From sequence record PQ417132.1: DNA of 44,205 nucleotides. One strand, given 5' to 3'. The notes beneath the pieces were generated by a model that was given only the letters and a program-made list of their open reading frames with translations, was not told the DNA's origin and made no database searches. The translations under genes were made by a program, and so were the position numbers. Positions 5,415 to 30,348 of the stretch are shown here, piece after piece. This DNA comes from Escherichia phage vB_VIPECOTH07. Position 1 is the stretch's first letter; each line of letters opens with the position of its first letter.

Positions 5415-5443
5415 ATAGTAGCCTATTCTATCTTAGTGTGCAA
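5415..5443 (-). promoter_or_regulatory. promoter TTGCAC-N17-TACTAT with dyad AATAG-N4-CTATT
   Basis: Minus-strand reading CTTGCACACTAAGATAGAATAGGCTACTATTCATTTA; dyad overlaps -10. Confidence 0.5.
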
Positions 5444-5450
5444 GTAAATT

Positions 5451-5621
5451 TTATTGGTGTTTTAAAGATAATCGTTCGCCACGAATCCAGTAGTACCTCG
5501 GGCGTCTGGCCCACTGGCACCAGCGCATAACACGGTACTTGTTGCCGTCTGACGCAACAATAAGTCCGAATCGCTTTTCTCCGTTTCTACCGGTCCAGGT
5601 TACGATGTCATTCAGTTTCAT
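5451..5621 (-). CDS. hypothetical small protein (~56 aa)
   Basis: Hand-translated MKLNDIVTWTGRNGEKRFGLIVASDGNKYRVMRW...; ATG at 5621 with AGGAG 8 nt upstream. Confidence 0.3.
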   Translation of the reverse strand: MKLNDIVTWTGRNGEKRFGLIVASDGNKYRVMRWCQWARRPRYYWIRGERLSLKHQ

Positions 5622-5755
5622 TGTTGCGTCTCCTGCAATAGTCGCTTCGATTGTTGCGTTTGGTGAAAGTGTCGCCTTTTGACGACACTAAGTTAAAGTT
5701 GTACGCTGCTGTGTAGCAGCGTAAGTCACTCAGTAAAATCCCAAACTATTGAACA

Positions 5756-5956
5756 TCACACTTCCGGCGGCTCAGGTAACGGCATCCAGTGAGTCACGTA
5801 CTTATCGTAGTGATTCCAGAAAGGCTTTCTCCCGTCATCAGGAACGATGTAATAATCGTGTTGAACTGCGTTATTTAACGTTTCATACACCAGGAATTCT
5901 TTATCTGTACTACCGTTGCCCGGCAGCATCTCACTACACTTAATCCACTCACCCAT
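5756..5956 (-). CDS. DUF551-like phage protein
   Basis: MGEWIKCSEMLPGNG... pattern (W-I-x-C/V-x-E-x-LP) recalls the DUF551 family; ATG at 5956. Confidence 0.4.
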   Translation of the reverse strand: MGEWIKCSEMLPGNGSTDKEFLVYETLNNAVQHDYYIVPDDGRKPFWNHYDKYVTHWMPLPEPPEV

Positions 5957-5962
5957 ATCTCA

Positions 5963-6103
5963 CCTCGTATTCATCGCAGTTTGAACACCAGCTTTCCACG
6001 CCCGCCACGCGAGACGTGTCTTAACGTTCAGGTACTCTTTCTTTGAACCCTTGTTAACCGGCAGACCCTCGACGATGGCCCACCGTTCGAATGCTTCTCT
6101 CAT
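5963..6103 (-). CDS. hypothetical small protein (~46 aa)
   Basis: Hand-translated MREAFERWAIVEGLPVNKGSKKEYLNVKTRLAWRAWKAG...; ATG at 6103 overlaps upstream stop. Confidence 0.25.
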
Positions 6104-6294
6104 AACTCAACCCCGTGGTGCTTAAGAAAACTGTTTAACTTGTACTCACGGTACTGTGCTACCTCCTTAGCATGAGCCAAATGCCACGACTTCAACGGGG
6201 TGTACTTCGCCTTTTCCCAGCATTCAACACCAAACTCGGCGGCGCGCAGACCGCCAATCAGACGCTCAAGGCGGAATTGGTTATACGGACTCAT
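6100..6294 (-). CDS. hypothetical protein
   Basis: ORF track 6100..6309; ATG at 6294 with GAGG upstream. Confidence 0.4.
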   Translation of the reverse strand: MSPYNQFRLERLIGGLRAAEFGVECWEKAKYTPLKSWHLAHAKEVAQYREYKLNSFLKHHGVEL

Positions 6295-6446
6295 ACCAGA
6301 ACCTCGCATTCATCCCGATACACGAACAATAACGACCCTTTGTACTCAATCATAAAACCATAATGGTTGCTGCTGAACGCCAGAAAAACATCACCTACCG
6401 AGATACCGAAATCTATAAGCCTGCGGTCAGTTATACGGATTCTCAT
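6291..6446 (-). CDS. hypothetical small protein (~51 aa)
   Basis: Hand-translated MRIRITDRRLIDFGISVGDVFLAFSSNHYGFMIEYKG...; ATG at 6446 with GGGAGG upstream; ATGA-coupled both sides. Confidence 0.3.
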   Translation of the reverse strand: MRIRITDRRLIDFGISVGDVFLAFSSNHYGFMIEYKGSLLFVYRDECEVLV

Positions 6447-6691
6447 TAACGGCAACCTCCCTCAGAGTCGTCGGCACGAGCATCATGATTCGATGCCGTT
6501 TTGATTATATTTTTCAGGCAACTTTTGCACGGCATAATTCTCCCTCCCTGCTCCATAACTAACAGGGCGTGCTGTGCGTCCTGAAACAACCAATCACTAA
6601 ATTGAGGCTTACAGCCGCACCATGTTTCTATATCATGTTTGGCGAGTTTAACCCCATCGCGATAGTCGTATTTAATTATATGATTAAACAT
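6446..6691 (-). CDS. hypothetical Cys-rich protein
   Basis: ATG at 6691 (SD AAGGGG); Cys pairs WCGCK and PCKSC suggest a small zinc-binding fold. Confidence 0.4.
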   Translation of the reverse strand: MFNHIIKYDYRDGVKLAKHDIETWCGCKPQFSDWLFQDAQHALLVMEQGGRIMPCKSCLKNIIKTASNHDARADDSEGGCR

Positions 6692-6876
6692 CACTTCGCC
6701 CCTTTGAATTTAAAATTGTTGCCGATGAGTGTTAAATTATCTCTGAAAGCGTAACCATGTTTCTTTCGTACAAGACCCCATACGTCTACAGCGGTACTAT
6801 ATTCATCCTCATTCTGGGTAACTATTACGTACTGTCCGCCGCGTTTTGTTTTAACCAACTGACCCTTCTTAAACAT
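6691..6876 (-). CDS. hypothetical protein (first gene of leftward operon)
   Basis: ORF track 6691..6903 (TTG); ATG at 6876 with GAGGAG 8 nt upstream, directly downstream of promoter 6911..6939. Confidence 0.4.
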   Translation of the reverse strand: MFKKGQLVKTKRGGQYVIVTQNEDEYSTAVDVWGLVRKKHGYAFRDNLTLIGNNFKFKGAK

Positions 6877-6910
6877 AACCATCACTCCTCTGTCTAGTTT
6901 CAATAAGTGA

Positions 6911-6939
6911 ATAGTAACCTATTATGTTGGGGTGTGCAA
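6911..6939 (-). promoter_or_regulatory. promoter TTGCAC-N17-TACTAT with dyad AATAG-N4-CTATT
   Basis: Minus-strand reading CTTGCACACCCCAACATAATAGGTTACTATTCACTTA; near-identical to copies at 5415..5443 and 30307..30335. Confidence 0.55.
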
Positions 6940-7322
6940 GAGATTCATTGAAAATGGTTACGTTGCCGTTGTGATTCTTCAGGTAGGGTTGTGCCTTTAT
7001 TCTTATTACTTGGTAACTAAAGGGCAGGCCCTAAGCCTGCCCAATAATCGTTACATTTTTACGGTTGCGAATCTACGGCACTTTAAGAAAATCAGATACT
7101 TAAGATATATTCCGCCGATGGGAATAGAGCTTGCCCAGGGCAACCGGAGATACTTAGGAAGGAAAGTTACGATAATTCGAATGTTCAGTAAACTGCCGCC
7201 TAACACTTCGCGTTGGGCGCTCGTTTTCGGCGGGTTTTACAAGGTGAACAGGAATCAAAGTAACTAAGATATAGAAGCACCTTAAACGAAGATTTTCTTA
7301 ATGTCAATAGGTGCGATTATGT

Positions 7323-7351
7323 TTGATTTCCCATTATTCGCAATGTATACT
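7323..7351 (+). promoter_or_regulatory. sigma70-like promoter TTGATT-N17-TATACT
   Basis: -35 TTGATT 7323..7328, 17-nt spacer, -10 TATACT 7346..7351; ~30 nt upstream of ATG 7384. Confidence 0.5.
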
Positions 7352-7383
7352 TGGTTTCGTTAACTGATAATGGGGGTTTGAGA

Positions 7384-7554
7384 ATGACGCAGAATGAGGT
7401 AGCTGAGCGTATCGGGGTTACTCGTCGCACGCTGAATAACTGGTTAAAGAGTGGGAAGTTCCCGGATTGTTGTATCCGTATTATGGGCCGCCGGCAGCCG
7501 GGTACTTTCGACCCGGAGAAAGTGGAAGCGTGGATTAAGGAGAATGTAAAATGA
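7384..7554 (+). CDS. AlpA/Xis-like HTH transcriptional regulator
   Basis: ATG at 7384 (SD GGGGG); MTQNEVAERIGVTRRTLNNWLKSGKFP is a typical AlpA-type HTH. Confidence 0.55.
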   Translation: MTQNEVAERIGVTRRTLNNWLKSGKFPDCCIRIMGRRQPGTFDPEKVEAWIKENVK

Positions 7555-7784
7555 CCGAGTTCCAGTCCCGCGTATTTACGGCAGTCGTTTCATTAACCTG
7601 TAAAAAAGGGTCGTGCAGCGTTATGGACTTGCGCCGTAGTTATTTTAGGTACTATAGTTCCGCCATTATTGAAGGGTCGTTGAAGGTACTGGTTAAATCT
7701 GGTGTCGTGAAAAATGTTGGCGGGAAATATAGTGCTGTTGCCGAAGTTCGCGGAATGACCGCTACTTTAGAAGACCTGGAATAA
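7551..7784 (+). CDS. hypothetical protein with C-terminal LEDLE tail
   Basis: ATGA-coupled to upstream gene; ends ...TATLEDLE. Confidence 0.45.
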   Translation: MTEFQSRVFTAVVSLTCKKGSCSVMDLRRSYFRYYSSAIIEGSLKVLVKSGVVKNVGGKYSAVAEVRGMTATLEDLE

Positions 7785-7842
7785 AAGAAAGCCCCGACGC
7801 GGTGAACGCCGAGGCTAAATTACTTGCTGAAGGAAATATAAC

Positions 7843-10083
7843 ATGTCCGATGTAATTTTATCCTACTCGTGGTCTCGTCGCAACGCGCGGGCCGAGAAAA
7901 AGGATATAAACGTCAGAACCACACACACGGCAACGCTGGGCGACCTGAAAGATTTAATCCAGCCGCTTGATGCTGTCCGTGACGGAATTAACCCGAAGAC
8001 CGCACCCGGTTATATCACCGCCGCGTGCGACTCCACACACAGCACCGTAAAAGACCCGGAAACCGGTGACTTTAAGCAAGCGCGTAAAGGCTTCTTCTAT
8101 CGCTGTGATGCGTCTGTAAGCAAATCGTCGCTGGCGTATCTTGACTTCGATAGCGCAACACCGGAAGAGTATCGGGAAGCGGTGCGCCTGGTTAAGCGCA
8201 GCCGCCAGGCGATGTGTCTCTACACCACGGCATCACATACCGACGAGTCGCCGCGCTTTCGCGTCGTCATGCCGCTGGCCCGCCCGGTTGAAGGTGGCGG
8301 CATCATCCGTGTTCGCCATGGATTACTGGAGCACTTCTTCAAAGGCATGGGCGCGGACCGCAGCGGGTTCACTCTGTCGCAGCCGATGTACCTGCCGCCA
8401 GTTGGCTCTACTGTTATCTGGTCGCGCCGCAACGACCTGATTGACCCTGATGAGTTACTGGAAGGCGCCCCAGCCGTTGACATCAGCAGCGCATCTGATT
8501 ACCAGATACCGGAAGAACTGCGCACCGCGTTTACAGATGCGTTTGAAGCACTGGCATTCGAGTACGGCGGCATCATGACGCCGCGTGGCCTTAAGATGCC
8601 AGCTACGCCAGAACACGCAGAAAACTACAGCGACCCGACCCCGCGCCCGGACGACTTCCTGCTGTGCTTCCCGCGCGAGGGATATGAAGCGCCGAACGTA
8701 ACGATGATTCACGACACCGACATCACGGCAACCGAAGGCATGTCGCCGAAAGAGGTGTGGAAATACGCGTGTGATGCGACCGGGCTGCCGTTCAGTGAAG
8801 TCGCCGAGGCTATCGGATGGGGTGCGCGTGAATCTGTTTCATGCAGCCTCGACGACCTGGAAGACGATGATGACTCAGAAGAGGACGAGCTACCGGAACC
8901 GGTAAAGGCTGATTTCGTCGTTGAGGGGTACATGCCGTCAGATTGTATCTGGGATATTGTTGGGGAATCCGGCACGTACAAATCGTTCTATACGCTGGGG
9001 ATGATGTACCTGAGCGCCGCCGGGTACAGGTTTGCGGGGGCGGATACCCAGCGTTGCCACCATTTCTATATTGATGGTGAGGGTGGCGCAGCTACACGCA
9101 CCCGTATTGATGCACTAGCGGCTAAATATGGCGGGGAAGGTAAAGATTATGTACACGTCATCGATATGGGCGAAGTCGGCAAACTTAAAAGCCTGATTAA
9201 GTTAATGCGCGAAACTGCTGGCGACGAGCCAATTGGCATGGTTGCGTTCGACACCCTTAACCAGACCCTGGCACTGACGATTGATAAGTTCGACGAGAAC
9301 AGTTCATCAACAGCAATCGGCATGGGTAAAGTTATCGCCATTCTGAAAGAAGTACGCGATGCAACTAAAGCCGCAGTAGGCGTTGTCCACCATACGCCGA
9401 AGGGTGGAAAGAAAGCACGCGGCAGTGGGGCGCTGTATGCGGGTGTTGACGTGGAACTGACAATCGAACGTGCAACCGACCGTCAGATAAACGTATATCA
9501 CTCGAAATTCAAGCACGGGCCTCAGCAGAAGACGGTTGGCATGGTGCTGGAGTCGGTACAGTTCCGTGAAGCGCCGCCGCCTAAAGAATACCGAGCGGTT
9601 GAGTTCCTGGGTAGCACAGAGGAATACGGCACAATCGTAAACCTCGATCTGCCTGAGCCGCACAAGGCGCTTGTGCTGATGCCGTGGGGCTTCGAGCCGT
9701 TCAAAACTGACGAGGAGAAAGAGCGGGAAGAAGGGTTGACGAAAGAAGGTAAGCAAAAAGTAAAGGAAGAAGTTAAACGCGGCAGGGATGAAGTAAGGAA
9801 GGAGTCAATACTTTCGGCACTGGAAGACCTGCAACAGTCAGATGACACAGGTCGCGGTTTTACTCAGCAGCAGATAGTGGCTCGTTCCGGTGACTTCTCT
9901 GTGACTAACACCCATCTTGATAAAATGTTGAAAGATGGAGAACTAATGCTTGGTTGCGATGCTAACGGCGAAGTAGTACCGAGAACATATCGTATACCCG
10001 AAAGAATAGGTGATAGATTAAGGCCGAAGACACTATACGAACCAAATGAGATGCTGGTGGTGACAGAGGAGGATTTGGAATAG
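7843..10083 (+). CDS. primase-helicase (AEP-like primase N-domain fused to RecA/DnaB-like ATPase)
   Basis: N-terminal LAYLDFD and TTASHTDESPRFRVVMPL resemble archaeo-eukaryotic primase motifs; C-terminal Walker A GESGTYKS and VVHHTPKGGKKARGSGALYAGVDVELTIER resemble RepA/DnaB-type helicases. Internal acidic stretch LDDLEDDDDSEEDE; ends ...TEEDLE. Confidence 0.7.
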   Translation: MSDVILSYSWSRRNARAEKKDINVRTTHTATLGDLKDLIQPLDAVRDGINPKTAPGYITAACDSTHSTVKDPETGDFKQARKGFFYRCDASVSKSSLAYLDFDSATPEEYREAVRLVKRSRQAMCLYTTASHTDESPRFRVVMPLARPVEGGGIIRVRHGLLEHFFKGMGADRSGFTLSQPMYLPPVGSTVIWSRRNDLIDPDELLEGAPAVDISSASDYQIPEELRTAFTDAFEALAFEYGGIMTPRGLKMPATPEHAENYSDPTPRPDDFLLCFPREGYEAPNVTMIHDTDITATEGMSPKEVWKYACDATGLPFSEVAEAIGWGARESVSCSLDDLEDDDDSEEDELPEPVKADFVVEGYMPSDCIWDIVGESGTYKSFYTLGMMYLSAAGYRFAGADTQRCHHFYIDGEGGAATRTRIDALAAKYGGEGKDYVHVIDMGEVGKLKSLIKLMRETAGDEPIGMVAFDTLNQTLALTIDKFDENSSSTAIGMGKVIAILKEVRDATKAAVGVVHHTPKGGKKARGSGALYAGVDVELTIERATDRQINVYHSKFKHGPQQKTVGMVLESVQFREAPPPKEYRAVEFLGSTEEYGTIVNLDLPEPHKALVLMPWGFEPFKTDEEKEREEGLTKEGKQKVKEEVKRGRDEVRKESILSALEDLQQSDDTGRGFTQQQIVARSGDFSVTNTHLDKMLKDGELMLGCDANGEVVPRTYRIPERIGDRLRPKTLYEPNEMLVVTEEDLE

Positions 10084-10085
10084 GT

Positions 10086-10110
10086 AAAAAGAAAGGGGCG
10101 TTACGCCCCT
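10086..10110 (-). terminator. rho-independent terminator overlapping XRE stop codon
   Basis: Hairpin GGGGCG-tta-CGCCCC; the XRE stop TAA is the loop; followed on minus strand by TTTCTTTTT. Confidence 0.6.
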
Positions 10111-10316
10111 TCACCTAGCGCCAGCCACTTGGCGTCTACTTCCAGCACTTCCGCCAGTTTAAACAGCGTTGCCGGGCGTACGTCCTGAGTTGCCCCGAGT
10201 GCAAGCTGGTTAATCGCGCCCTGGGAAACGCCGGCCAGAACAGCCAGACGGCGCTGGGAGATACCGAGTTCTTTACGGCGTTGCTCTACACGGATGCCTA
10301 GTTCAGATGGTTGCAT
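10101..10316 (-). CDS. XRE-family HTH transcriptional regulator (Cro/CI-like, 71 aa)
   Basis: ELGISQRRLAVLAGVSQGAINQLALG is a canonical XRE HTH. ATG at 10316 with AAGGAG 8 nt upstream. Monocistronic, antisense inside the replication module. Confidence 0.75.
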   Translation of the reverse strand: MQPSELGIRVEQRRKELGISQRRLAVLAGVSQGAINQLALGATQDVRPATLFKLAEVLEVDAKWLALGEGA

Positions 10317-10326
10317 GTCAGTTACT

Positions 10327-10355
10327 CCTTAGTCAGTTGATATGTGAATAGTACC
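10327..10355 (+). promoter_or_regulatory. operator-like dyad in weak promoter context (TTGATA ... AATAG-TACC-ATATT)
   Basis: Imperfect copy of the dyad, 44 bp upstream of the perfect copy at 10381..10394, between the XRE gene and the 10441 operon. Confidence 0.4.
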
Positions 10356-10370
10356 ATATTAATTATTTTA

Positions 10371-10399
10371 GAAAAGCCCATTGACATGTGAATAGTTCG
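10371..10399 (+). promoter_or_regulatory. strong sigma70-like promoter TTGACA-N17-TATAGT with embedded dyad
   Basis: -35 TTGACA 10371..10376, 17-nt spacer containing AATAGTTCGCTATT, -10 TATAGT 10394..10399; SD GAGAGGAGAG then ATG 10441. Confidence 0.65.
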
Positions 10400-10440
10400 C
10401 TATTATAGTTAGCCCATACCAAACGAGAGGAGAGAAACAA

Positions 10441-10941
10441 ATGTTAGACCAATTCTTAAAATTACTGGAACGTTTCGTAGTTGCTCATGAACTGATTGCT
10501 GCGAATAGCGCGAAACGACCGGTGCCGCAGACCGAGCGTGTAGGTGAAATGCTTGTACACGGGTCAGTCTGCGGAGATGTACTTGAAGTCGACACAGTCA
10601 CTGGTGTCGGGAAAGAAATCCCGGTCGAAGGTCAAGACATCGTCGACACTAAACCGGCAGAAGAAGAGAAGCCAAAACGCAAGCCGCGTAAAGCTAAAGT
10701 AGAGGAGCCGACGCCAGAACCGGAAGAAGAAGTCGATTACCAGTCTCTGCGTGACCAGATTCAGGCTATCGACGATGCGATTAACGAAGGTCCGAGCGAT
10801 GCCGCGTGCGACGACTCCGATGAACTGCTGGAAGAGTTTACCGGCAAGAAGATGAAGATTGCCGCGATTAAAGACGAAGACCTGGCCGAGTACCTGGAAC
10901 GCCTGACGGCGATCAAGAACAAGTATTTCGAAGAAGAATAA
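10441..10941 (+). CDS. highly acidic protein, function unknown
   Basis: Strong promoter and RBS; Glu/Asp-rich (PEPEEEVDYQ, DDSDELLEEF, ends KYFEEE). Confidence 0.6.
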   Translation: MLDQFLKLLERFVVAHELIAANSAKRPVPQTERVGEMLVHGSVCGDVLEVDTVTGVGKEIPVEGQDIVDTKPAEEEKPKRKPRKAKVEEPTPEPEEEVDYQSLRDQIQAIDDAINEGPSDAACDDSDELLEEFTGKKMKIAAIKDEDLAEYLERLTAIKNKYFEEE

Positions 10942-10984
10942 CTATCCGGCGGCCTTCGGGCCGCTTTAACAGAGGGTCGTAATT

Positions 10985-11200
10985 ATGCGTAACGTATATA
11001 AAGTGATAAATGAGCAAATCGTTGTGGAAATAAGCGAGGCAACCACGGGTGAACAACGATTTTTCGTATTAAACGGGTGTTGGTATGGCGTTCTTGATTA
11101 CAATAATAATCTGGTGTGGGCCGAAAATTATCCCGACAGAAAACAGAAGCTTATGTCCGTACGTACTGCTGCTAAAGGTGAATTCGCACCGTACTACTGA
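10985..11200 (+). CDS. hypothetical protein
   Basis: ATG-initiated ORF in operon. Confidence 0.45.
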   Translation: MRNVYKVINEQIVVEISEATTGEQRFFVLNGCWYGVLDYNNNLVWAENYPDRKQKLMSVRTAAKGEFAPYY

Positions 11201-11211
11201 GGGGCGTAATT

Positions 11212-11547
11212 ATGAACTACGAAAATTTAACAGACATAGAAATTAACGCACGCGTCAGCCGCGCGCTATACGGCGATGTTTCGCGAGGGCATCAGATGGA
11301 ATTAGCTTCTGGTGATGTTGATTATTGCAACCGCGTTGAAGACGCATGGCCTGTTATCACCGGTAACAACATCTCGATTGTAGCTACCGATTCAGAATGG
11401 ATTGCTTTACCAGATAATGCGGTTATTGACGGTATTACCGGAGACGCCACCAGTATGATTTACGTTGGTGACGAATGCGTTATCGGCGAAAACCCTCTAC
11501 GCGCCTCTATGATTGTCTTCTTGAGAACGCATGAGGTGGATAAATGA
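11212..11547 (+). CDS. hypothetical protein (DUF2591-like pattern)
   Basis: N-terminus MNYENLTDIEINARVSRALYG recalls a common enterophage protein family of unknown function. Confidence 0.45.
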   Translation: MNYENLTDIEINARVSRALYGDVSRGHQMELASGDVDYCNRVEDAWPVITGNNISIVATDSEWIALPDNAVIDGITGDATSMIYVGDECVIGENPLRASMIVFLRTHEVDK

Positions 11548-11816
11548 TTTACCAACTATACCGCGCCGTAGACAGGCGGGATAACACAGAGGCGTTGTGG
11601 CTGTTGCGTGCGCCGTCCGGAGCGCACCAGATGGAAGAGATGGCTTACTTAGGCAAAGTACCGCGGCCTAAAGATATAGGCCGTCACGTGTCACAGATTA
11701 AGCGCACGACATTCGCCAAGCCAGACTTTTATGTCTTTGAGTCGATGTATGGGTGGGCTATGCACTGCGAACATAAGACGCGACATTTAATCGACCAGTG
11801 GGAGAGCAGGGTATGA
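11544..11816 (+). CDS. hypothetical protein
   Basis: Overlaps upstream stop; no motif recognised. Confidence 0.45.
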   Translation: MIYQLYRAVDRRDNTEALWLLRAPSGAHQMEEMAYLGKVPRPKDIGRHVSQIKRTTFAKPDFYVFESMYGWAMHCEHKTRHLIDQWESRV

Positions 11817-11962
11817 CAAGGTACGCGATAATTGTAGAAATAGACGGTAAAGACCAGGAACACAGCCGCTACGCACGTTTGGACGAAGCCCAGTACATCT
11901 TCTACACATTCGGCTTCGCACGCAGTTTCACTAATGCGCGTATTGTGGAGATTGCAGAATGA
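11813..11962 (+). CDS. hypothetical small protein (~49 aa)
   Basis: Hand-translated MTRYAIIVEIDGKDQEHSRYARLDEAQYIFYTFGFARSF...; ATG overlaps upstream stop. Confidence 0.3.
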   Translation: MTRYAIIVEIDGKDQEHSRYARLDEAQYIFYTFGFARSFTNARIVEIAE

Positions 11963-12117
11963 CGAACCGTAAAGCGCGACTTCTCTTTATTAAATGTCAC
12001 CAGCCTTTTCGAGTAAGCAACTCGACTTGGCTGATTATATTCAACCGTAGCGGTGACACGTGCGCCTACAAGCGCAAAACGCGTAAAGTTAAATGGGGTG
12101 GGAGTTTAAGAGCATGA
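11959..12117 (+). CDS. hypothetical small basic protein (~52 aa)
   Basis: ATGA overlaps at both ends (11959 and 12114); MTNRKARLLFIKCHQPFRVSNSTWLIIFNRSGDTCAYKRKTRKVKW... Confidence 0.3.
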   Translation: MTNRKARLLFIKCHQPFRVSNSTWLIIFNRSGDTCAYKRKTRKVKWGGSLRA

Positions 12118-13355
12118 AACTAAAAGAACGAGGCGGCAATAATGATGTACACGCCTTACTGTCACCGTCAGGCGCTAAAAAGTGGCTGTCATGCGCTGCG
12201 TCGCTGGCGTGTGAAAAAGATATCCCTAACACGTCGGGTAAAGCCGCTGTATCAGGAACCGCCATGCACACCATAGCTGAGGTCCATCTCAACGCCTATA
12301 TACGCGGCACTGCGTTGCCGTTGGAGCGTGAAGTCGGCGCTTACGTGCTGGACGAGGGTAAAGGCCAGATTAAGGCGCTAATTAGCCAGATGAAAGGCGC
12401 GGTACTGATTACGGCTGACATGATTGAGCAGGTGCGCAAGTACACCGACTACTGCAAAGCGATTATCGACGTAGCGACTTACGCCAAGCTGGAAATGCGG
12501 GTAAATCTTACTGAGGTATTGCATCCGGGTTACGAAGGCGTTGAGACGTTCGGAACCGCTGACCTTGTTGCCGTTCAGGAACTGGCGAACACTGACGAGC
12601 ATATGCTCATTATCGGCGACCTGAAAACAGGACGGCATCATGTCGAAGCGAAAGAAAACAAGCAGCTTATGCTCTACGCTCTCGGTGTTTACCGCCGACT
12701 CAAGAGACGTTATAACATATCAGTAGTGCGCCTGGTCATCTTCCAGCCGTACGCCGGGGGCGCGTCGGAGTGGGACATCTCGGTTGAAGGTCTGGAACTG
12801 TTCGCTAAGTTCGCACAGAAACGCGCACTGTTAGCCCTTGATGCGTATTTCCGAGGCAAGAAGAACCTGAAAGCGTCGGACTTTAAGCCGTCTGTCGACG
12901 GTTGTCAGTGGTGTCGGTTCTCTGAACAGTGCGCAGCGCGTACAAAGACGGTTAATTCTGTACTTGCCGAAGAACTGGAGGACGACTTTGCGCTGGAACT
13001 TACGCCGGAGCAACTCGTAGCTGAATATGAGAAGTTGCCGTTGTTGCGCCAGCACATCGATAAGGTCGAAAAAGCTATGGCTGCTGCGTTGCATTCCGGT
13101 AAGAAAGTGCCAGGGTACAAGCTGGTGGAAGGTCGCCCAGGTAATCGTGCGTGGAAAGACGCAGAGAAAGTAGCAGAACTCTACGGCGACAAGCTGACTA
13201 AAGAAGTGCTCCTGACGCCGACCGAAGCGGTTAAAGTAATACCAGAAGAAGAACTGAAAGACTTCATCACACGTAAGCCGGGGACGCCATGCGTCACAAC
13301 AGCGGACGACAAACGTCCTGAGTGGAATAAGGTTAGTGAAGAAGATTTAGAATAA
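12114..13355 (+). CDS. PD-(D/E)XK exonuclease, Cas4/RecB-like with four-Cys cluster
   Basis: ADLVAV...IIGDLKTGRHH nuclease motifs; N-terminal WLSCAASLAC plus C-terminal CQWCRFSEQC match the Cas4-type Fe-S Cys pattern. Start moved to ATG 12114 (track 12093). Ends ...VSEEDLE. Confidence 0.7.
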   Translation: MKLKERGGNNDVHALLSPSGAKKWLSCAASLACEKDIPNTSGKAAVSGTAMHTIAEVHLNAYIRGTALPLEREVGAYVLDEGKGQIKALISQMKGAVLITADMIEQVRKYTDYCKAIIDVATYAKLEMRVNLTEVLHPGYEGVETFGTADLVAVQELANTDEHMLIIGDLKTGRHHVEAKENKQLMLYALGVYRRLKRRYNISVVRLVIFQPYAGGASEWDISVEGLELFAKFAQKRALLALDAYFRGKKNLKASDFKPSVDGCQWCRFSEQCAARTKTVNSVLAEELEDDFALELTPEQLVAEYEKLPLLRQHIDKVEKAMAAALHSGKKVPGYKLVEGRPGNRAWKDAEKVAELYGDKLTKEVLLTPTEAVKVIPEEELKDFITRKPGTPCVTTADDKRPEWNKVSEEDLE

Positions 13356-13359
13356 AGTG

Positions 13360-13388
13360 TTGACATCTGAATAGTTAGCTATTATAGT
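13360..13388 (+). promoter_or_regulatory. strong sigma70-like promoter TTGACA-N17-TATAGT with embedded dyad
   Basis: TTGACATCTGAATAGTTAGCTATTATAGTT; same architecture as 10371..10399; a CCGGG-cagctt-CCCGG hairpin follows in the leader (13401..13416). Confidence 0.65.
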
Positions 13389-13442
13389 TCTAATCACTGG
13401 CCGGGCAGCTTCCCGGAGTAATCTTAAAAGCGAGAAATCAAG

Positions 13443-14069
13443 ATGGGCATTAAACTGAATCTGCGTAAAGTAAACACTGCATGGGTTAACGTATTCGAAC
13501 GCGAAAAAGACCGTGAAAACGACGACGGCTCAATCACTAAAGGCCAGTACAGCGCAACTATCATCCTGCCGACTGACCATGCTCAAATCGATGCGCTGTA
13601 CGACACTGTTTACGCTGTAGTTGAAGAAGCATTAGGTGCAGCTGCTGCCGAGAAGTGGATGAAGTCAAACTACGGCGAAGGCAAGCATATGGATAAATGC
13701 GCTATTAAAGACATTGCTGAGCGCGACAATCCGTTTGAAGACTTCCCGGAAGGCTTCTACTTCAAAGCGAAAGCACAGAAACAGCCGCTGATTGTAACCT
13801 CTAAAAAAGGTGAGACTCAGGTGGAGCAGGACTTCAACGTAGACGGTGAACAGATTGAAGGTGAACAGGTTTACAGCGGCTGCGTCGCTAACGTAAGCGT
13901 CGAAATCTGGTTCAGCCAGAAATATAAAGTACTCGGCGTTAACCTGCTGGCGATTAAATACGTCGGAGAAGGTAAAGCGTTTGGAGGCTCTAAAGTTGCT
14001 GCAAGCGTCGACGACCTGGAAGACGACGAAGAAGATGAAGCACCGCGCCGCGAACGTCGCCGCCGTTAA
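13443..14069 (+). CDS. single-stranded DNA-binding / annealing protein (putative)
   Basis: Own strong promoter, next to the exonuclease; acidic DDLEDDEEDE segment then basic RRERRRR C-terminus. Fold not verified. Confidence 0.45.
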   Translation: MGIKLNLRKVNTAWVNVFEREKDRENDDGSITKGQYSATIILPTDHAQIDALYDTVYAVVEEALGAAAAEKWMKSNYGEGKHMDKCAIKDIAERDNPFEDFPEGFYFKAKAQKQPLIVTSKKGETQVEQDFNVDGEQIEGEQVYSGCVANVSVEIWFSQKYKVLGVNLLAIKYVGEGKAFGGSKVAASVDDLEDDEEDEAPRRERRRR

Positions 14070-14088
14070 TATCTGAATCAATTTAACT

Positions 14089-14112
14089 AAGGCCCTTCAT
14101 TGGGCCTTTTTA
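14089..14112 (+). terminator. rho-independent terminator / attenuator
   Basis: AGGCCC-ttcatt-GGGCCT followed by TTTTT, between SSB-like gene and DNA polymerase. Confidence 0.6.
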
Positions 14113-14128
14113 CTAAGGGTCGAAAATA

Positions 14129-16309
14129 ATGAGTTACCTGTTCTTAGACTTTGAAACATTCTCCGAAGCCGATTTGAAGAAAGTCGGTTCCTACGCTTAC
14201 GCCGAACATCCAACTACCGAAGTGCTAATCTGTACATATGCTTTTAACGACCAGCCTGTACAGGTATGGGATTGCACCGACGGCAGCGATATGCCGGGCG
14301 ATTTGTATCGCGCGTTACGCCGCCTGGTTAAGCCGAACAGCCGCGTTAAGATGGTGTGGCACAACGGCTCAATGTTCGATAGGCTCGTCATGAAACACTG
14401 CTGGGGTTTTGACATTCCGGTAAGCAACACCATTGATACGATGATTTGGGCGTTTCGTCACGCGCTGCCGGGTTCGCTCGATGCGCTGTGCGAAGTGCTG
14501 GGCGTATCTGCTGACAACGCAAAAGACAAACGCGGTAAGGCGCTGATTCAGCGTTTCTCTAAACCGACACCGAAGAACTACAAAATTCGCCGCTATACCG
14601 CCGAAACGCACCCTGACGAGTGGGCGCTGTTCATCAAGTACGCAGTTAGCGACATCACCGCGATGCGTGAAGTGTTCCATAAGCTACCGCGGTGGGGTAA
14701 CTCGGAGTTTGAGGACCGTGTACTGGAACTGGACCAGTTAATCAACGACCGCGGGTTTAAGGTCGACGTTGCGTTGGCGGAAGCCGCGATTGAAGCGGTA
14801 GAGAAACACAAAGCGCAGTTGCAGGAAGAAGCCCAACGTAAATACGGCGGCTCGCTTACTGGTAAAGACTTCCTTCCTATTCTGCGTGAACTTGCGCCAG
14901 CGCACCGAATCCACAACGCGCAGAAGTCGACGCTAAATGACCTGTTGGCGGATGATGATTTACCGGACGACGCCCGCACGATTATCGAAATGCGCCTCGG
15001 GGCGGCATCCACTGCGTCAACGAAATATAACCCGCTGCTGTTAGGCCGCTCGTCTGACGACCGCCGTCGCGGTTGCATCCAGTATGGTGGAGCTAAACGT
15101 ACGTTACGATTTGCGGGTAAAGGCTTCCAGCCGCAGAACCTGGCTCGCGGGTACTATCACGACGACGAACTGGATAAAGGCATTTCTGCGTTACTTAAAG
15201 GCCGTGCGCACCGCCGTTTCGATGTAGCCAAACTAACGGCATCGACGGTGCGCAGCTGCATTATACCTGAAGCCGGGCATAAGTTTGTCGTCGCCGATTA
15301 CTCTAACGTTGAAGGCCGCGGTTTGGCGTGGCTGGCTGGCGAAGAAACCGCGCTTGATACGTTCCGTGCCGGGCTGGATATTTACTGCGTAACCGCAGGC
15401 AAGATGTTTGGCATGGAGTCGGATTACATTAAGAAAGAACGTAAAGACTTACGCCAGATTGGTAAGGCCTGCGAACTGGGACTTGGCTACGCGGGTGGTG
15501 TCGGCGCATTCGTACAGTTCGCCAAAAACCTCGGCCTTGACCTTGTTGATATGGCAAAAACAATGGACGGGACTTTCCCCGACCACATCTGGGCTGCTAC
15601 CGCACGTGGATATGAGTGGGCGCGTATTCAGGAAGCCAAGCGACCGCCACGTCCTGGTGAAAAAGATGACCGACCATCTTATATTCTTGATAAGAAAGTG
15701 TGGCGTACCTGCGACGCTATCAAGCGTATGTGGCGTGAGTCACACCCGGAAACAGTAGCTTTCTGGCGTGATATTGAAGATGCGGCTATGGCGGCTATCC
15801 GCAATCCGGGCAAAGAGTTCACCGCGGGGCCGCGGGGAGTTAAGTTTTCGCGCAACGTAGAGACAGACAACAACAGCAACAAAGTCGCCGGTTGGTGGCT
15901 GCGCATGACGTTGCCGTCGGGCCGCGTTATGTCTTACCCAGGCGTAGGGTTGAGCGTATCGAAAGAGACAGACGAAGATGGGAAGGTGTCTACTAACGTG
16001 CGCATAAAGTACCAGGGAGAAAATCAGTTAACCCGTCAGTGGGGCTTCCAGTACACATATTCCGGTAAACTCGTGGAAAACTGCACACAGGCGCTGTGCC
16101 GTGATTTGCTGGCTAATGCGCTGCTGAACGTCGAAGCAAACGGCTACCCGATTGTGCTTCATGTTCACGATGAGATTATCTGCGAGACACCAGATTTACC
16201 GGAATACAATGTTGCAGAGCTTGAGCGGTTGATGTGCGAATTACCTGAATGGGCGGAGGGGTTCCCTCTTGTAGCAGAAGGTGCGGAGATGAAGCGTTAT
16301 GCCAAGTAA
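14129..16309 (+). CDS. DNA polymerase, family A, with 3'-5' exonuclease domain
   Basis: Exo I DFETFS; motif A VVADYSNVEGRGLAWLAGE; motif B RQIGKACELGLGYAGG; motif C VLHVHDEII. Confidence 0.9.
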   Translation: MSYLFLDFETFSEADLKKVGSYAYAEHPTTEVLICTYAFNDQPVQVWDCTDGSDMPGDLYRALRRLVKPNSRVKMVWHNGSMFDRLVMKHCWGFDIPVSNTIDTMIWAFRHALPGSLDALCEVLGVSADNAKDKRGKALIQRFSKPTPKNYKIRRYTAETHPDEWALFIKYAVSDITAMREVFHKLPRWGNSEFEDRVLELDQLINDRGFKVDVALAEAAIEAVEKHKAQLQEEAQRKYGGSLTGKDFLPILRELAPAHRIHNAQKSTLNDLLADDDLPDDARTIIEMRLGAASTASTKYNPLLLGRSSDDRRRGCIQYGGAKRTLRFAGKGFQPQNLARGYYHDDELDKGISALLKGRAHRRFDVAKLTASTVRSCIIPEAGHKFVVADYSNVEGRGLAWLAGEETALDTFRAGLDIYCVTAGKMFGMESDYIKKERKDLRQIGKACELGLGYAGGVGAFVQFAKNLGLDLVDMAKTMDGTFPDHIWAATARGYEWARIQEAKRPPRPGEKDDRPSYILDKKVWRTCDAIKRMWRESHPETVAFWRDIEDAAMAAIRNPGKEFTAGPRGVKFSRNVETDNNSNKVAGWWLRMTLPSGRVMSYPGVGLSVSKETDEDGKVSTNVRIKYQGENQLTRQWGFQYTYSGKLVENCTQALCRDLLANALLNVEANGYPIVLHVHDEIICETPDLPEYNVAELERLMCELPEWAEGFPLVAEGAEMKRYAK

Positions 16310-16964: not shown

Positions 16965-16975
16965 GGAATTGAGAA

Positions 16976-19440: not shown

Positions 19441-19442
19441 AG

Positions 19443-19474: not shown

Positions 19475-22423
19475 CTCTTCTAGCGCTGCCAGCCTCTGCT
19501 CTAACTCACGCATCTTCTTACGCTGATACGCAATCTCTAGGAAGAACATCTGGTCTGCCCTAATCCCCCATCTGCCGCCGGGGGCTGTTATTTGTACGGT
19601 CTGACCATCTTCATCAACGCCATACGTAGCTTCAATTGAGTCGTAGCACAAGAAAGCATATTTACAGTCTGTAGAACCCTCTTCCATAAGCCCATGTTTG
19701 ACCAAGATGTCTCGCACATCTTGAGCTATCACGCCGAAGTGTATCCTTGCAGTGTCACCCTTGATTGCTAGGCTTTCAAGCCACTTAAAAGATATTACAT
19801 GTATATCTTCCCATGCGGTAAGGAGTTGTTGCTCAATTTCCTCTTTGTTCGTCTTAAGTGTACCGTCAGACGTGTTTATCGTACCGGTGGTCGCGTACAC
19901 CGTAGTCCACCTATTACCTGCCGAACCTAAAGACACTTGCGAGTCTAAGTAAGGAAGGAAATTGTCGTATGAGTAGAAGCCTCCTGACGCATACATAATA
20001 GCCCTGTTAGGCGTTGCATGGTTCGACCCGTACAGTTGCAGCAATGCACCGTCGGAACTGGATGCGCCATCACCGCCACTAACAATCAGTCGTTGAGCAG
20101 ATGGGGTTTTAGTCGGGACTGTTTTTGAAATCAGCCCGTAATCACCATCAAACCGTGCCCGCACGGCAGACTGTTGTGTGCCATCGTATTCCAACCCCGT
20201 TACACGCAGGGAGTACACGCTTATTTCATTGTCAAACGTCAAAGGTGCTTCTACATGACGGACACCATCTACACCCATTGCGACAGGTAGTGTACGGTTA
20301 GGAGTTGCTCCGTATTTGAAATCACGGGACACATACGGGTGGTCTTCAATCTTTATCCGGTAGCTATATAAGTCAGCCGGATGCCCATCATGCTTGTACC
20401 ATAACTTCGCACTGTTATCCCCTATGCTCCAGGGAGAGAAGAAGTCTTCCCCTCCAAAGATATAGTACAACCAGCCATCTTTAACACAGACAGAGCCGAC
20501 GCCGACGGCAGAGTTAACGATATGGCCCTGGTATATTTGGTCGGTAATATTAAACCACTGAACATCATCTAAAGATGAAGGCCATGACGACACATTAACT
20601 TTGCACATAAAGGTCCGTGGATACGAACCTTCATAGCGGCTGTCCGGCTCACCCCCTTCCCACTCGCCAAAGGCACGTTCTGTACCAAAGATGTAGAGAT
20701 AGTCACCTACTTTAGCGAACGGAAGATTGGAGTGATGTACATTGTTCGGAAATCGCAAGTAGCTCCAGTTTTGCCCAGAATCGGTGCTCATCGCCAGTGT
20801 AGCGCCAGGGGAAGTAGGTAATGTGCCGCGTGTGGTAAGGTAGAGCACACCTCCATAACTTTTCACGCACGGCTCAGAAGCGTTATCAGCGTATGCCTGA
20901 GCGACAGTGCGACGAACGAATACGCCTGGATTGTCATACACGTTACTAAAATACAAGACGCCAAGACGACGAGGGGACACATCGCCGTTGTGGTAGCCGA
21001 CAGCGATAGTGTAGTTAGTATCATCTATAACCGCAAAACTATGTGTCTCCGTGACACACAAATCAGCGTTAGTGGAGTATGCCACCCCCGGCAATTCGGT
21101 AATTTCCCACGGGCTGTCCCAGAATCGCGTTGCGAAGTTCCAGGTAACACCCGCATTGTTTATGGTGGAACTCGCAGGGCTTGAGAGCGTAACAGTGAAC
21201 GTATTTCGGTTAATTATAGACGCAACCGTCATATTACCCGATACGCCAGTTGCCGATGTATTAGAGAAGTTAACCGCATCTCCTGCTTTTAGGCCATGAT
21301 TTTCTATAACAATGGTAGCAGTAGTGGAGCCAGAACTAATAGTTATTCCGCCGGTTGGGTGTCTAAAATACGGCATTGGGCGTGACCAAAGTTCTGCCTT
21401 CTTCATCCGCATATTAGATAAGTAGCGGGTTTCTATAACCGCATATAATCGGTTGCCGCACGTACCCATGCTCATGCAGTGGTAATTAACTCTGTCCGCA
21501 GAAACACTAGCATTATAGTCAGCATGGATTGGAGTCAACCACTCAGGCATTGACCAAGTCTGCCCGTCGTCGCCAGAGCGAACCCAAGCTACATGTAAGT
21601 TTTGAACGCCATGTCGTTCGCCCGCCATAAACGGGGCGTAAATAACATGGTCGTAGACGAAAGTTTTATCCTGCGTCCATGCGTTGTAGAACGGGGTATC
21701 CGTCACCTTAGTTAGTGAGCTGTTAAAGAAGCCATCAGCTACATAAGTAAGCGGTTGCCCGGCTACGCGCTCGTAAACGAATGCAGCATTCTTAAATTTA
21801 CTAATGTCAGGTAATTGGGAAACTTTATAAGTCAAACCCCTGCCGTCTATAATCCAATTGTTGGGAGAAGCTGCTAATACATTAAAAATAGATTGAGTAT
21901 CATCAGTTACACCGTCGCCCACGGCGCCCCATGCGCGTGGGTCGTATTCGTCCTTCCATCGCGCCATATGTAAATCTGGGTACAGAATTGCACCGTTTAC
22001 ATCAGATATTTGCTGCCGCAGTATGACCGACCCGACGGGCTGCCACGCCCCATCTGCCACGCCACCGGTGGACTGCGGAGAAGACGACGCTGGGATAATT
22101 TTTGGTAGAGCACCCAACCAATAGTACCAATCCCCGTCACCGCCAGAGGACGACGGCCACAAAACTGCGGTGTTTCGGTCGTTAGCGGATAGTGTACCGC
22201 CTGACGTGAAATCAAAATCTGCCAGTTTAAAACCTGCGTCACGCAACACAGCCGGCAGTGTCTTCTGTGTCTGCCCCGTAACTGCGTTGGTCGCGTAATC
22301 AATATCTGCGCCTGCAGCTACACCGCCAGATTTACCGGTAATAACCTCAGCTTCGAAAATCTGGTGTTTCTTGGCGGTCTGTAAGTCCGCCAGGCTTAAA
22401 ACGTCACCGCATCCGCTTGACAT
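19469..22423 (-). CDS. tailspike with sialidase-like Asp-boxes and C-terminal intramolecular chaperone-like domain
   Basis: Two Asp-box motifs (SGDDGQTWS, STDSGQNWS); C-terminus ...INTSDGTLKTNKEEIEQQLL...ARIHFGVIAQDV resembles the self-cleaving chaperone domain of endosialidases and L-shaped fibres; last gene of the tail operon. Confidence 0.8.
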   Translation of the reverse strand: MSSGCGDVLSLADLQTAKKHQIFEAEVITGKSGGVAAGADIDYATNAVTGQTQKTLPAVLRDAGFKLADFDFTSGGTLSANDRNTAVLWPSSSGGDGDWYYWLGALPKIIPASSSPQSTGGVADGAWQPVGSVILRQQISDVNGAILYPDLHMARWKDEYDPRAWGAVGDGVTDDTQSIFNVLAASPNNWIIDGRGLTYKVSQLPDISKFKNAAFVYERVAGQPLTYVADGFFNSSLTKVTDTPFYNAWTQDKTFVYDHVIYAPFMAGERHGVQNLHVAWVRSGDDGQTWSMPEWLTPIHADYNASVSADRVNYHCMSMGTCGNRLYAVIETRYLSNMRMKKAELWSRPMPYFRHPTGGITISSGSTTATIVIENHGLKAGDAVNFSNTSATGVSGNMTVASIINRNTFTVTLSSPASSTINNAGVTWNFATRFWDSPWEITELPGVAYSTNADLCVTETHSFAVIDDTNYTIAVGYHNGDVSPRRLGVLYFSNVYDNPGVFVRRTVAQAYADNASEPCVKSYGGVLYLTTRGTLPTSPGATLAMSTDSGQNWSYLRFPNNVHHSNLPFAKVGDYLYIFGTERAFGEWEGGEPDSRYEGSYPRTFMCKVNVSSWPSSLDDVQWFNITDQIYQGHIVNSAVGVGSVCVKDGWLYYIFGGEDFFSPWSIGDNSAKLWYKHDGHPADLYSYRIKIEDHPYVSRDFKYGATPNRTLPVAMGVDGVRHVEAPLTFDNEISVYSLRVTGLEYDGTQQSAVRARFDGDYGLISKTVPTKTPSAQRLIVSGGDGASSSDGALLQLYGSNHATPNRAIMYASGGFYSYDNFLPYLDSQVSLGSAGNRWTTVYATTGTINTSDGTLKTNKEEIEQQLLTAWEDIHVISFKWLESLAIKGDTARIHFGVIAQDVRDILVKHGLMEEGSTDCKYAFLCYDSIEATYGVDEDGQTVQITAPGGRWGIRADQMFFLEIAYQRKKMRELEQRLAALEEK

Positions 22424-27042: not shown

Positions 27043-27058
27043 CCCAGAGGCTGGAGAA

Positions 27059-29425: not shown

Positions 29426-29777
29426 CGTTTCTGCCCTCGAAAATAGCGTCTAAGCTCATGATGATGTCAGATTCAAACATGTCTATATTCTGGCCCGAAA
29501 CGGTGCTGTATGCCACTAAATCCGACCATCTTAACTGTTCGCGCGGGTACATCTTGATGCCGTCGTCATCCACTCGGCGGGTAAATTTGATTTCCCGGTA
29601 CTTCTCGAAGGTGGTTAATAGCTCAGGGGGGCATTCTGGCCCGGTATCCTGCGTTGCTTCCGGCGCGTCTTGCATAACCCCCATAGCAATTAGCGCGGCT
29701 TTATGTCCGTCGGCAATGCTGTCAAACTCCCGCCGTTTGTGGCGGGTTATGAAGTTCCAACGGGCAAACTGGAGCAA
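29418..29777 (-). CDS. tail assembly chaperone, frameshift-extension ORF (T-like)
   Basis: Open in the -1 frame relative to the upstream G-like gene across its stop; candidate slippery GGAAAAG at 29786..29792. Confidence 0.45.
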   Translation of the reverse strand: MLQFARWNFITRHKRREFDSIADGHKAALIAMGVMQDAPEATQDTGPECPPELLTTFEKYREIKFTRRVDDDGIKMYPREQLRWSDLVAYSTVSGQNIDMFESDIIMSLDAIFEGRNDG

Positions 29778-29782
29778 CGCGT

Positions 29783-30199
29783 CTACTTTTCCTGCAATTG
29801 GTGAAGCTGTTCGTTGTGGAAAACAACAACGTGTTCAGCGAGGCGTTTATATTGTGAGAAAAGAGTGTTCAGGTTCTCTTTATTAAATTCATCGTCGAGA
29901 CTCCAACCGTTAACCAGTTCAAGTGCTAACTGGCGGTTAAGGTCCGTCGCGGCGTCTTCCATCTTAATATTGTATTCCGAGAAATCTTTCAGTTCCTCAC
30001 ATTTATCACGAAGCGGTTTCAATTTACCTAATGCCGCGCGGTACGCAAGTGTAAACGCCCTCATAGCTTTAACGGCAACGTCTGCCTCCGGTGAAACAAC
30101 GTTCAGCCACTCCCCTGAATCGGTGCCGTCTTTCAGTGGTATTGGCATACGGGCGCCTTTTTCTGCCTCAGCTTCGTAATAAAAATCAGAAAGTTTCAT
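29783..30199 (-). CDS. tail assembly chaperone (G-like)
   Basis: 138-aa acidic protein immediately upstream of tape measure; ATG at 30199. Confidence 0.5.
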   Translation of the reverse strand: MKLSDFYYEAEAEKGARMPIPLKDGTDSGEWLNVVSPEADVAVKAMRAFTLAYRAALGKLKPLRDKCEELKDFSEYNIKMEDAATDLNRQLALELVNGWSLDDEFNKENLNTLFSQYKRLAEHVVVFHNEQLHQLQEK

Positions 30200-30306
30200 T
30201 CTTTAATCCTTTGGTTAAGAGGTTACTGGTTAAGGTTAATGCGCCAGACGGGAACCACCCGCTTTTCGTGTGCGACACTAGGCGCAAAATAATTCTAACA
30301 CATTAC

Positions 30307-30335
30307 TTGCACACCCCAACATAATAGGATACTAT
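30307..30335 (+). promoter_or_regulatory. promoter TTGCAC-N17-TACTAT with dyad AATAG-N4-CTATT
   Basis: ACTTGCACACCCCAACATAATAGGATACTATTCACTTA; near-identical to the minus-strand copies at 5415 and 6911; SD AGGAG then ATG 30377. Confidence 0.6.
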
Positions 30336-30348
30336 TCACTTACACCAA
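30321..30348 (-). promoter_or_regulatory. candidate divergent promoter for tail chaperone operon (TTGGTG-N16-TATTAT)
   Basis: Reverse strand of the same element reads GTGTAAGTGAATAGTATCCTATTATGTT, resembling the 10371 and 13360 promoters; lies upstream of gene 30199 on minus strand. Confidence 0.35.

Follow-up and report, generated by a model that had tools for sequence, protein, structure and literature searches.

The genome of Escherichia phage vB_VIPECOTH07 (PQ417132.1), analyzed here as a single 44,205-nucleotide stretch of DNA (the window), contains a family of 14-bp inverted repeats, AATAG-N4-CTATT (hereafter, the dyad), embedded in sigma70-like core promoters. The placement and conservation of the dyad strongly support its identification as a protein-binding site for a dimeric binder encoded by the phage itself. 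We favor, with moderate confidence, the more specific reading that the dyad, within the longer motif TGAATAGT-N3-CTATTAT, serves as the operator for the phage's own dimeric helix-turn-helix (HTH) repressor, most likely the 71-amino-acid (aa) XRE protein encoded at 10101..10316 on the minus strand. Sequence comparison identifies the window as a K1-specific Kagunavirus; the subfamily to which it belongs, Guernseyvirinae, is described as virulent. Positions 5000..17500 share 96% identity with the Escherichia phages vB_EcoS_XY1 and BUCT825 and match 471 Kagunavirus and Jerseyvirus records.

Dyads embedded in sigma70-like promoters

Exact copies of the dyad occur six times in the window (at 5414, 6910, 10391, 13370, 16925 and 30323), compared to 0.02 expected from dinucleotide shuffles. 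All six are located inside sigma70-like core promoters, 38-67 nt 5' of a start codon, so that the whole-window motif scan bears out the promoter family first proposed in an earlier note on this sequence. With up to one mismatch allowed, there are 11 matches compared to 1.28 expected. Orthologs of the imperfect dyads at 10347, 2858, 39779 and 41407 are present in phage Bas73, whereas the fifth one-mismatch site, at 23332, lies within a tail gene, lacks a Bas73 counterpart and is probably a chance match.

Two types of dyad promoters were defined by regular expression, namely, type 1 (TTGCAC-N17-TACTAT) and type 2 (TTGAC[AG]-N17-TATAGT). The full motif is longer than the dyad and asymmetric. In type 2 promoters, it reads with transcription and fills the spacer, with its center at about -18.5; in type 1 promoters, it is inverted and covers the -10 hexamer, with its center at about -12.5. 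It is because of this asymmetry that a type 1 element, when reversed, resembles type 2. All six promoters with exact dyads combine a 17-bp spacer with good hexamers, and the exact dyads fall between about -25 and -6. In a sigma70 consensus scan of 2500..19600, the type 2 promoters at 10381, 13360 and 16915 match 11, 11 and 10 of the 12 positions, respectively, and no other match exceeds 10.

The three type 1 promoters are located where the earlier note had placed them. Two of these, both on the minus strand, belong to the leftward small-gene operon: 6911..6939, conserved in Kagunavirus loci, is the first promoter (dyad 6910..6923 over the -10; ATG at 6876), and 5415..5443 is an internal one (dyad 5414..5427 over the -10; ATG at 5382). 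The third, at 30307..30335 on the plus strand (dyad 30323..30336 over the -10), precedes the superinfection-immunity gene 30377..30568 and the exonuclease module. The type 2 promoters are all on the plus strand. The promoter at 10381..10409 (TTGACA-N17-TATAGT), with the exact dyad O1 (10391..10404) in its spacer, serves the rightward replication operon (ATG at 10441) and is divergent from the XRE gene. The promoter at 13360..13388, with the same hexamers and the dyad 13370..13383 in the spacer, is located 5' of the gene for a gp2.5-like single-stranded DNA-binding (SSB)/annealing protein (13443..14069). The third type 2 promoter, TTGACG-N17-TATAGT at 16915..16943 (dyad 16925..16938), was missing from the earlier list; it lies 5' of 16976..17179 and the SNF2-type helicase operon.

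Four of the previously listed promoter elements, including 13360..13388, thus stand as given, and two had been placed 10 nt too far to the left. The element assigned to 10371..10399 is the promoter 10381..10409, and the supposed degenerate copy at 10327..10355 is the dyad O2 at 10347..10360, which is part of the leftward promoter of the XRE gene. Read on the minus strand, O2 (AATAGTACCATATT) is the imperfect dyad AATAT-GGTA-CTATT; it overlaps the -10 hexamer TACTAT (10349..10354) of this promoter, which is preceded by TGg and accordingly is an extended -10. A distance of 44 bp separates the centers of O1 and O2.

Dyads are found beyond the operons to which they had been ascribed. Imperfect copies also cover the -35 hexamers of two minus-strand elements, the promoter TTGACT-N17-TATATT at 2866..2838, which heads the leftward small-gene/terminase operon (dyad 2858..2871, AATAG-TCAA-CTAGT; the element 2838..2871 is conserved in Bas73 and Ent1), and the promoter-like TTGACT-N17-TAAGCT at 39787..39759 (dyad 39779..39792; conserved in Bas73). 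The weak dyad AATAG-CATA-CTATA was correctly recognized but is located at 41407..41420 rather than 41406..41419; it lacks a -35 hexamer, adjoins the portal-gene terminator, downstream on the minus strand, and is conserved in Bas73. Only one clear sigma70-like promoter lacks a dyad, namely, TTGATT-N17-TATACT at 7323..7351 (plus strand), 5' of the gene for a 56-aa AlpA-like HTH_17 protein (7384..7554, plus strand) that heads the primase-helicase operon.

Several roles unrelated to a repressor were considered and rejected. An RNA hairpin is incompatible with the type 2 promoters, where the dyad is upstream of the transcription start; iterons or packaging sites do not fit copies that each lie within a promoter core; and a site for a MerR-type spacer-binding activator would have a 19-20 bp spacer, whereas all six promoters have 17 bp. 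To our knowledge, the spacing of the ARG box and the Fur box is also wrong for this element.

Conservation and clade-specific variants of the dyad

AATAG-N4-CTATT is the top 5-N-5 dyad in the Kagunavirus Bas73 (seven copies) and in the Jerseyvirus Ent1 (four copies). In Ent1, it is extended to TAATAG-N4-CTATTA and occurs in a third register, TTGCAT-N17-TATTAT, with the dyad center at about -15.5. Among the 70 IMG/VR loci that were retrieved with the XRE protein, the 39 from Kagunavirus contain 175 exact dyads, in which N4 takes 26 different forms, and the 12 from Jerseyvirus contain 38 exact dyads.

To compare the half-sites with the center of the dyad, we used three orthologous promoters, with alignments made without reference to the motif. 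Of the 30 half-site columns, only 2 are variable, both through singletons, compared to 8 of the 12 N4 columns (Fisher p = 1.5e-4), and the linker between the -35 hexamer and the dyad varies among these orthologs in both sequence and length (17 or 18 bp). Because the spacer is not read by sigma70, another reader is needed to explain the invariant TGAATAG within it. Moreover, the dyad occurs in three registers relative to the hexamers and in both orientations; it therefore appears to be a separate module that is not part of polymerase recognition.

Other members of the group carry altered versions of the dyad. Pantoea phage AH01 contains five copies of AATAC-N4-GTATT (0.03 expected) and none of the AATAG type, and conversely, the window has no AATAC-type dyads; St162 contains three copies of TATTA-N6-TAATA (0.03 expected). 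Mirrored half-site changes at many sites of one genome point to a co-evolving dimeric binder. Because Ent1 and St162 both infect Salmonella but have different dyads, this binder is likely to be encoded by the phage and not by the host. Together, the invariant half-sites around a free N4, the three registers in both orientations and the symmetric switches among clades strongly support the proposal in the earlier note of a single phage regulator acting on a promoter-embedded operator. A PHIRE-like all-against-all 18-mer search (4 mismatches allowed; loci L052 and L064) returned only noise, and a promoter-anchored listing was used instead.

The motif itself is already in print as a PHIRE promoter consensus. 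In the Kagunavirus fBC-Eco01, PHIRE identified seven sites with the consensus tgAATAGTa-ccTATTat-T, which were attributed to a phage-encoded RNA polymerase (PMC9825357). PHIRE promoters, also seven in number, are reported for Kagunavirus in another paper (PMC7203180). The fBC-Eco01 consensus and the dyad are the same motif, for which an operator set into sigma70 promoters is, in our analysis, the better explanation. Broad literature searches on regulation in Guernseyvirinae yielded no further study.

The XRE protein is the best candidate for the binder

The XRE gene is monocistronic, with a terminator at 10092..10112. Its product contains an HTH_3 domain (PF01381, E = 2.4e-12, 47 bits against a cutoff of 23) and matches PHROG families annotated as transcriptional repressor or regulator. 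Among solved structures, its best match is the Cro protein of phage 434 (1zug/2cro/3cro; phmmer E = 7.8e-6, residues 6-68), likewise a 71-aa single-domain HTH_3 protein. An AlphaFold2 model, built on a shallow alignment because the homologue search returned close relatives only, comprises five helices (pLDDT, the predicted local distance difference test score, 78). In Foldseek, the model aligns with 2cro with a TM (template modeling) score of 0.71-0.77 and 40% identity, and it also matches the DNA-binding domains of the 434 and P22 repressors as well as SinR, HipB, C.AhdI and C.BclI. 434 Cro and all these other proteins are dimeric operator binders.

The XRE gene is associated with a dyad of its own. 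In five of the six clades, a dyad of the respective clade type with at most one symmetry mismatch is found 44-67 nt upstream of the XRE start codon: AATAT-GGTA-CTATT in the window, AATAC-TACG-GTATA in AH01, GATAC-TATA-GTATT (over the -10) in Klebsiella phage VLCpiS11a, ATTAC-TTGC-GTATT in TS33 and two overlapping one-mismatch dyads, at -50 and -49, in St162. The Ent1 promoter has none within one mismatch, but a two-mismatch dyad, ATTAC-TGTA-CTATT, at about -45. Beyond this promoter, no dyad is enriched in VLCpiS11a, which makes the XRE promoter the site with the widest distribution among the clades. Of the two regulators that had been put forward previously, sequence and modeled structure thus favor the XRE protein as the most likely binder; the AlpA-like protein was not found in clades that retain the dyad system and is disfavored.

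Information on timing comes from the only transcriptome of a close relative, obtained by RNA sequencing of vB_Eco_K1B4. By the authors' early, middle and late classes alone, the AlpA-like gene falls in the early class, and the 216-bp gene that occupies the position of XRE peaks in the middle class (PMC12645636). The middle class is compatible with a protein that turns down promoters already in use.

The open reading frame (ORF) for the XRE protein is not annotated in several deposited genomes, including the K1ind1 and K1ind2 records. At the corresponding Bas73 locus, 34027..34242 (plus strand), a 31-aa ORF on the opposite strand is annotated instead. The regulator is therefore invisible in these records. 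Compared with the loci L003, L004, L075 and L076, Kagunavirus and Jerseyvirus genomes have the primase module (window 7323..10316) inverted and headed by the AlpA-like gene with its dyad-less promoter; after this inversion, the XRE gene is a convergent monocistronic unit.

Proposed mechanism and its limits

The motif, its placement and conservation, the clade-specific symmetric variants and the type of protein were computed here; binding, dimerization, repression and timing we infer. Dyads at about -25 to -6, in promoters with optimal 17-bp spacers and good hexamers, are so positioned that their occupancy should occlude RNA polymerase. The likely action, as judged from this geometry, is promoter occlusion that turns down early and middle transcription, combined with autoregulation. 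A dimer bound within the core of a host-sigma70 promoter, in the spacer or over the -10, would exclude the polymerase. On entry, the host polymerase would fire the dyad promoters while the XRE protein builds up from its own weak extended -10 promoter. The protein would then turn down the operons with perfect dyads, namely, the small-gene, replication and accessory ones, and curb its own synthesis via the imperfect O2, the putative autoregulatory site of the XRE gene. Promoters with imperfect dyads (2838..2866 and 39759..39787) would be affected less or later.

Several observations weigh against this scheme or against the XRE protein as its agent. VLCpiS11a and TS33 encode an XRE ortholog but have no dyad enriched genome-wide. 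The recognition helices of the Kagunavirus and Jerseyvirus XRE proteins differ (SQGAINQL versus SQSLITHL, with about 50% overall identity), and yet both genera have AATAG half-sites; the AlpA-like protein, at 85-89% identity between the two genera, fits the common dyad better. The K1B4 time course is coarse, extending to 120 min and probably covering several infection cycles (PMC12645636). Finally, the promoter at 2838..2866, whose operon continues into the terminase and structural genes, is overlapped by an imperfect dyad, and a possible leftward tail-gene promoter, TTAACA-N17-TAGTAT at 30357..30329 (minus strand), shares the 30323 dyad and its -10 positions with the 30307 promoter. A simple model in which everything is shut off is therefore incomplete, and graded affinities, or more than plain shut-off, are likely. 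On balance, the sequence data support the cis element well and the identity of its binder moderately. We also sought a recognition code relating XRE proteins to half-sites, but none was derivable from so few independent clades.

In VLCpiS11a, which lacks the AATAG dyad, the repeats GTTGGTTGCAA / TTGCAACCAAC are located at or beside the -35 hexamer (TTGCAA) of several promoters (e.g., 4976, 20787, 34990 and 37852). The type 1 promoters of the window contain a similar sequence, TTGCAC-ACC-CCAACAT.

Comparison with known regulatory systems

The closest parallel to the proposed regulator is 434 Cro. The 434 operators (ACAA-N6-TTGT) are 14-bp dyads with a non-contacted center. Like these, the dyads of the window are 14 bp long, combine conserved outer bases with a free center and overlap core promoter elements, and the role proposed for the XRE protein, turn-down of early promoters during lytic growth, is that of Cro. 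Unlike in 434, the half-site is AATAG rather than ACAA; the window, which belongs to a virulent subfamily, lacks a partner CI repressor, a tripartite OR and an integrase; and the predicted operators are spread genome-wide over at least 7-10 promoters instead of being clustered at OR and OL. A CI-length repressor or integrase is not annotated in Bas73, Ent1 or AH01. A lambdoid CI-Cro immunity region was rejected because there is only one XRE gene, divergent from the replication operon, and two sites 44 bp apart.

The Cro proteins of lambda and P22 are likewise small early repressors that, once accumulated, lower transcription from PL and PR as well as their own synthesis. Lambda Cro, however, has a different fold, and the regulon in the window seems to take in replication, accessory and possibly late-operon promoters. 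The controller (C) proteins of restriction-modification systems, such as C.AhdI and C.BclI, are close fold matches; these small XRE dimers achieve timing via dyad boxes at their own promoter. They differ in having two adjacent boxes 5' of one operon, with activation preceding repression, whereas in the window, single dyads are set into the cores of many promoters, and 44 bp separate O1 from O2.

Alternative explanations

The parallel with C proteins also raises the possibility that the XRE protein binds the dyads as a dual regulator or activator, for example, repressing the 10381 promoter from O1 while stimulating its own promoter or redirecting the polymerase to late promoters. Lambda cI at OR2 and the C proteins provide precedents, C.AhdI and C.BclI being among the closest folds. 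The center of O1 would be at about -38.5 relative to the predicted start of an alternative XRE promoter, TTCACA-N16-TAAAAT (10392..10365), and the late-operon promoters have imperfect dyads only. Nevertheless, every exact dyad is in an occlusive position, and at the XRE promoter, the arrangement found across clades is a dyad over the -10, which is repressive. We regard a dual role as improbable; the activator considered in the earlier note is itself unlikely, with dyads centered at about -12 to -19 in cores that have 17-bp spacers and near-consensus hexamers.

It is similarly unlikely that another phage protein or a host factor binds the dyad, with the XRE protein controlling only its own promoter. 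There is no shortage of potential binders, given that most of the small early proteins of the window have no detectable family, and an XRE protein dedicated to its own promoter would account for VLCpiS11a and TS33. Against this explanation, the clade-type dyad of the XRE promoter is also that of the remaining promoters, and against a host factor in particular, the dyad variants differ between the two Salmonella phages, Ent1 and St162. We know of no E. coli regulator with a consensus matching the dyad.

Among the phage proteins, the AlpA-like protein deserves separate consideration as an early factor that would bind the dyad and repress or otherwise modulate the dyad promoters. It is found exactly in Kagunavirus and Jerseyvirus, the two genera with AATAG-N4-CTATT, and its sequence conservation between these genera, its early class in K1B4 and the lack of a dyad in its own promoter all speak for it. 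However, searches with a hidden Markov model (HMM) did not detect it (E > 0.1) in St162 or AH01, both of which retain promoter-embedded dyads with altered half-sites, nor in VLCpiS11a or TS33. Within Kagunavirus, its recognition helix varies (TRRT, TRQT, STMT) whereas the dyad is constant. The nearest folds of its model, although weak matches (E >= 0.03), are minimal MerR-like winged helices (Pukovnik Xis, BldC, RdfS and RacA), and proteins of this kind mostly bind direct repeats head to tail. The Pseudomonas AlpA is much larger and contacts DNA via residues 128-142, with one molecule bound to a single 6-bp element (PMC9371919). These differences make the AlpA-like protein a decidedly poor candidate. 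An element loading an AlpA/Q-type antiterminator was rejected as well: the phage protein has 56 aa and only the HTH_17 domain, with none of the features to which the Pseudomonas protein owes its antiterminator function, and the element is a dyad (no search for a sigma-dependent pause element was made).

A still weaker case, which we consider very unlikely, can be made for the lack of any regulator, with duplication of promoters, together with the near-palindromic -10 hexamers (TATTAT, TACTAT, TATAGT) of symmetric or bidirectional sigma70 promoters, giving rise to the dyad as a by-product. The promoters at 6911 and 30307 are nearly identical over about 40 nt, the right half-site overlaps -10-like hexamers, and at 30323 there is a valid -10 on both strands. 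This site is an exception: contrary to the suggestion that each element may be bidirectional, an opposite-strand -10 together with a -35 (TAGTAT and TTAACA) is present only there. The opposite-strand hexamers at 5414 (TAGTAG) and 6910 (TAGTAA) are invalid as -10 elements and both lack a -35, and the arrangement at 30323 is not conserved in Bas73, where the ortholog reads TAGTAC. TGAATAG, the left half-site of the type 2 promoters, is invariant among variable neighbors even though the polymerase does not read the spacer that contains it, and the symmetric G-to-C/C-to-G switch at five AH01 sites is impossible by ancestry alone.

The published interpretation, in which an RNA polymerase encoded or modified by the phage uses the motif as its promoter, accounts for the recurrence of the motif upstream of genes but is hardly credible, and lacks the support of a polymerase gene: no RNA polymerase was found among the large ORFs of the window or is annotated in Bas73, Ent1 or AH01, canonical sigma70 hexamers flank the motif, and its two orientations and three registers leave no fixed relation to the transcription start.

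Additional features of the window

The six largest ORFs of the window encode the endosialidase tailspike, a tail protein, the tape measure protein, the primase-helicase, DNA polymerase A and the SNF2 helicase. The tailspike gene (19469..22423, minus strand) encodes a complete endosialidase, with an N-terminal extension, beta-propeller, beta-barrel and tail-spike catalytic domains and an S74 chaperone, and the phage is therefore specific for the K1 capsule. A scan of the window against Rfam detected no family.

The leader of the SSB gene (13389..13442) contains a short hairpin at 13401..13416, CCGGGcagcttCCCGG, and compensatory changes preserve it across clades: VLCpiS11a-like loci have CCCGGcggtttCCGGG, and L064-like loci have CTCGGcgggttCCGAG. 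It is not more stable than shuffled sequence (z = 0.25). The hairpin might be a translational or processing signal.

Between the small-gene operon and the AlpA-like gene lies an apparently gene-poor stretch of 400 bp (6932..7350), the Ent1 counterpart of which is an unannotated gap of about 1 kb. A leftward promoter-like sequence, TTGACA-N17-TAAGGT, which is conserved in Ent1, is located there at about 7307..7279, and a strong terminator, also leftward, at 7042..7022; the pair points to a transcript or small ORF about 250 nt long. Similarly, a GC-rich terminator at 39578..39559 (minus strand) follows the promoter-like element 39787..39759 after about 180 nt, upstream of the spanin gene, and 39792..39559 may give rise to a short leftward transcript. 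At the Bas73 counterpart of 39559..39792, a 36-aa ORF is annotated, and an extra exact dyad is found nearby (Bas73 5160).

The hairpin AAGGCCCCtttcGGGGCCTT at 32778..32798, which separates the rightward accessory module from the leftward major-tail gene, resembles a bidirectional terminator, so the tail genes downstream (from 30199 leftwards) would need read-through or a promoter of their own. The AGGCC-N8-GGCCT hairpin of this site is also present at 14090 and 19446.

Implications

Few phages are isolated for therapy and food biocontrol as often as Kagunaviruses and Jerseyviruses, whose genomes are routinely flagged for a 'repressor' gene. If the XRE protein proves to be a Cro-like lytic regulator, this recurrent safety ambiguity would be removed. 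Confirmation of its operator set would correct the published assignment of the motif to a phage polymerase and would provide the first regulatory map of the subfamily, along with compact repressor/operator pairs of naturally diverged specificities for phage engineering and synthetic circuits. The mechanism itself is familiar, and the payoff would be practical, unless the switching of specificity reflects competition between virulent phages. In the broadest form of the model, which is conceivable although rather doubtful, a strictly virulent lineage runs almost its whole transcription program via one Cro-like governor, with an operator in nearly every promoter and a specificity that was switched repeatedly (AATAG, AATAC, TATTA). 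If so, these clades would offer natural orthogonal pairs of small repressors and operators, and, lysogeny being absent, the divergence of their half-sites could stem from cross-repression among co-infecting relatives, a form of 'lytic heteroimmunity'.

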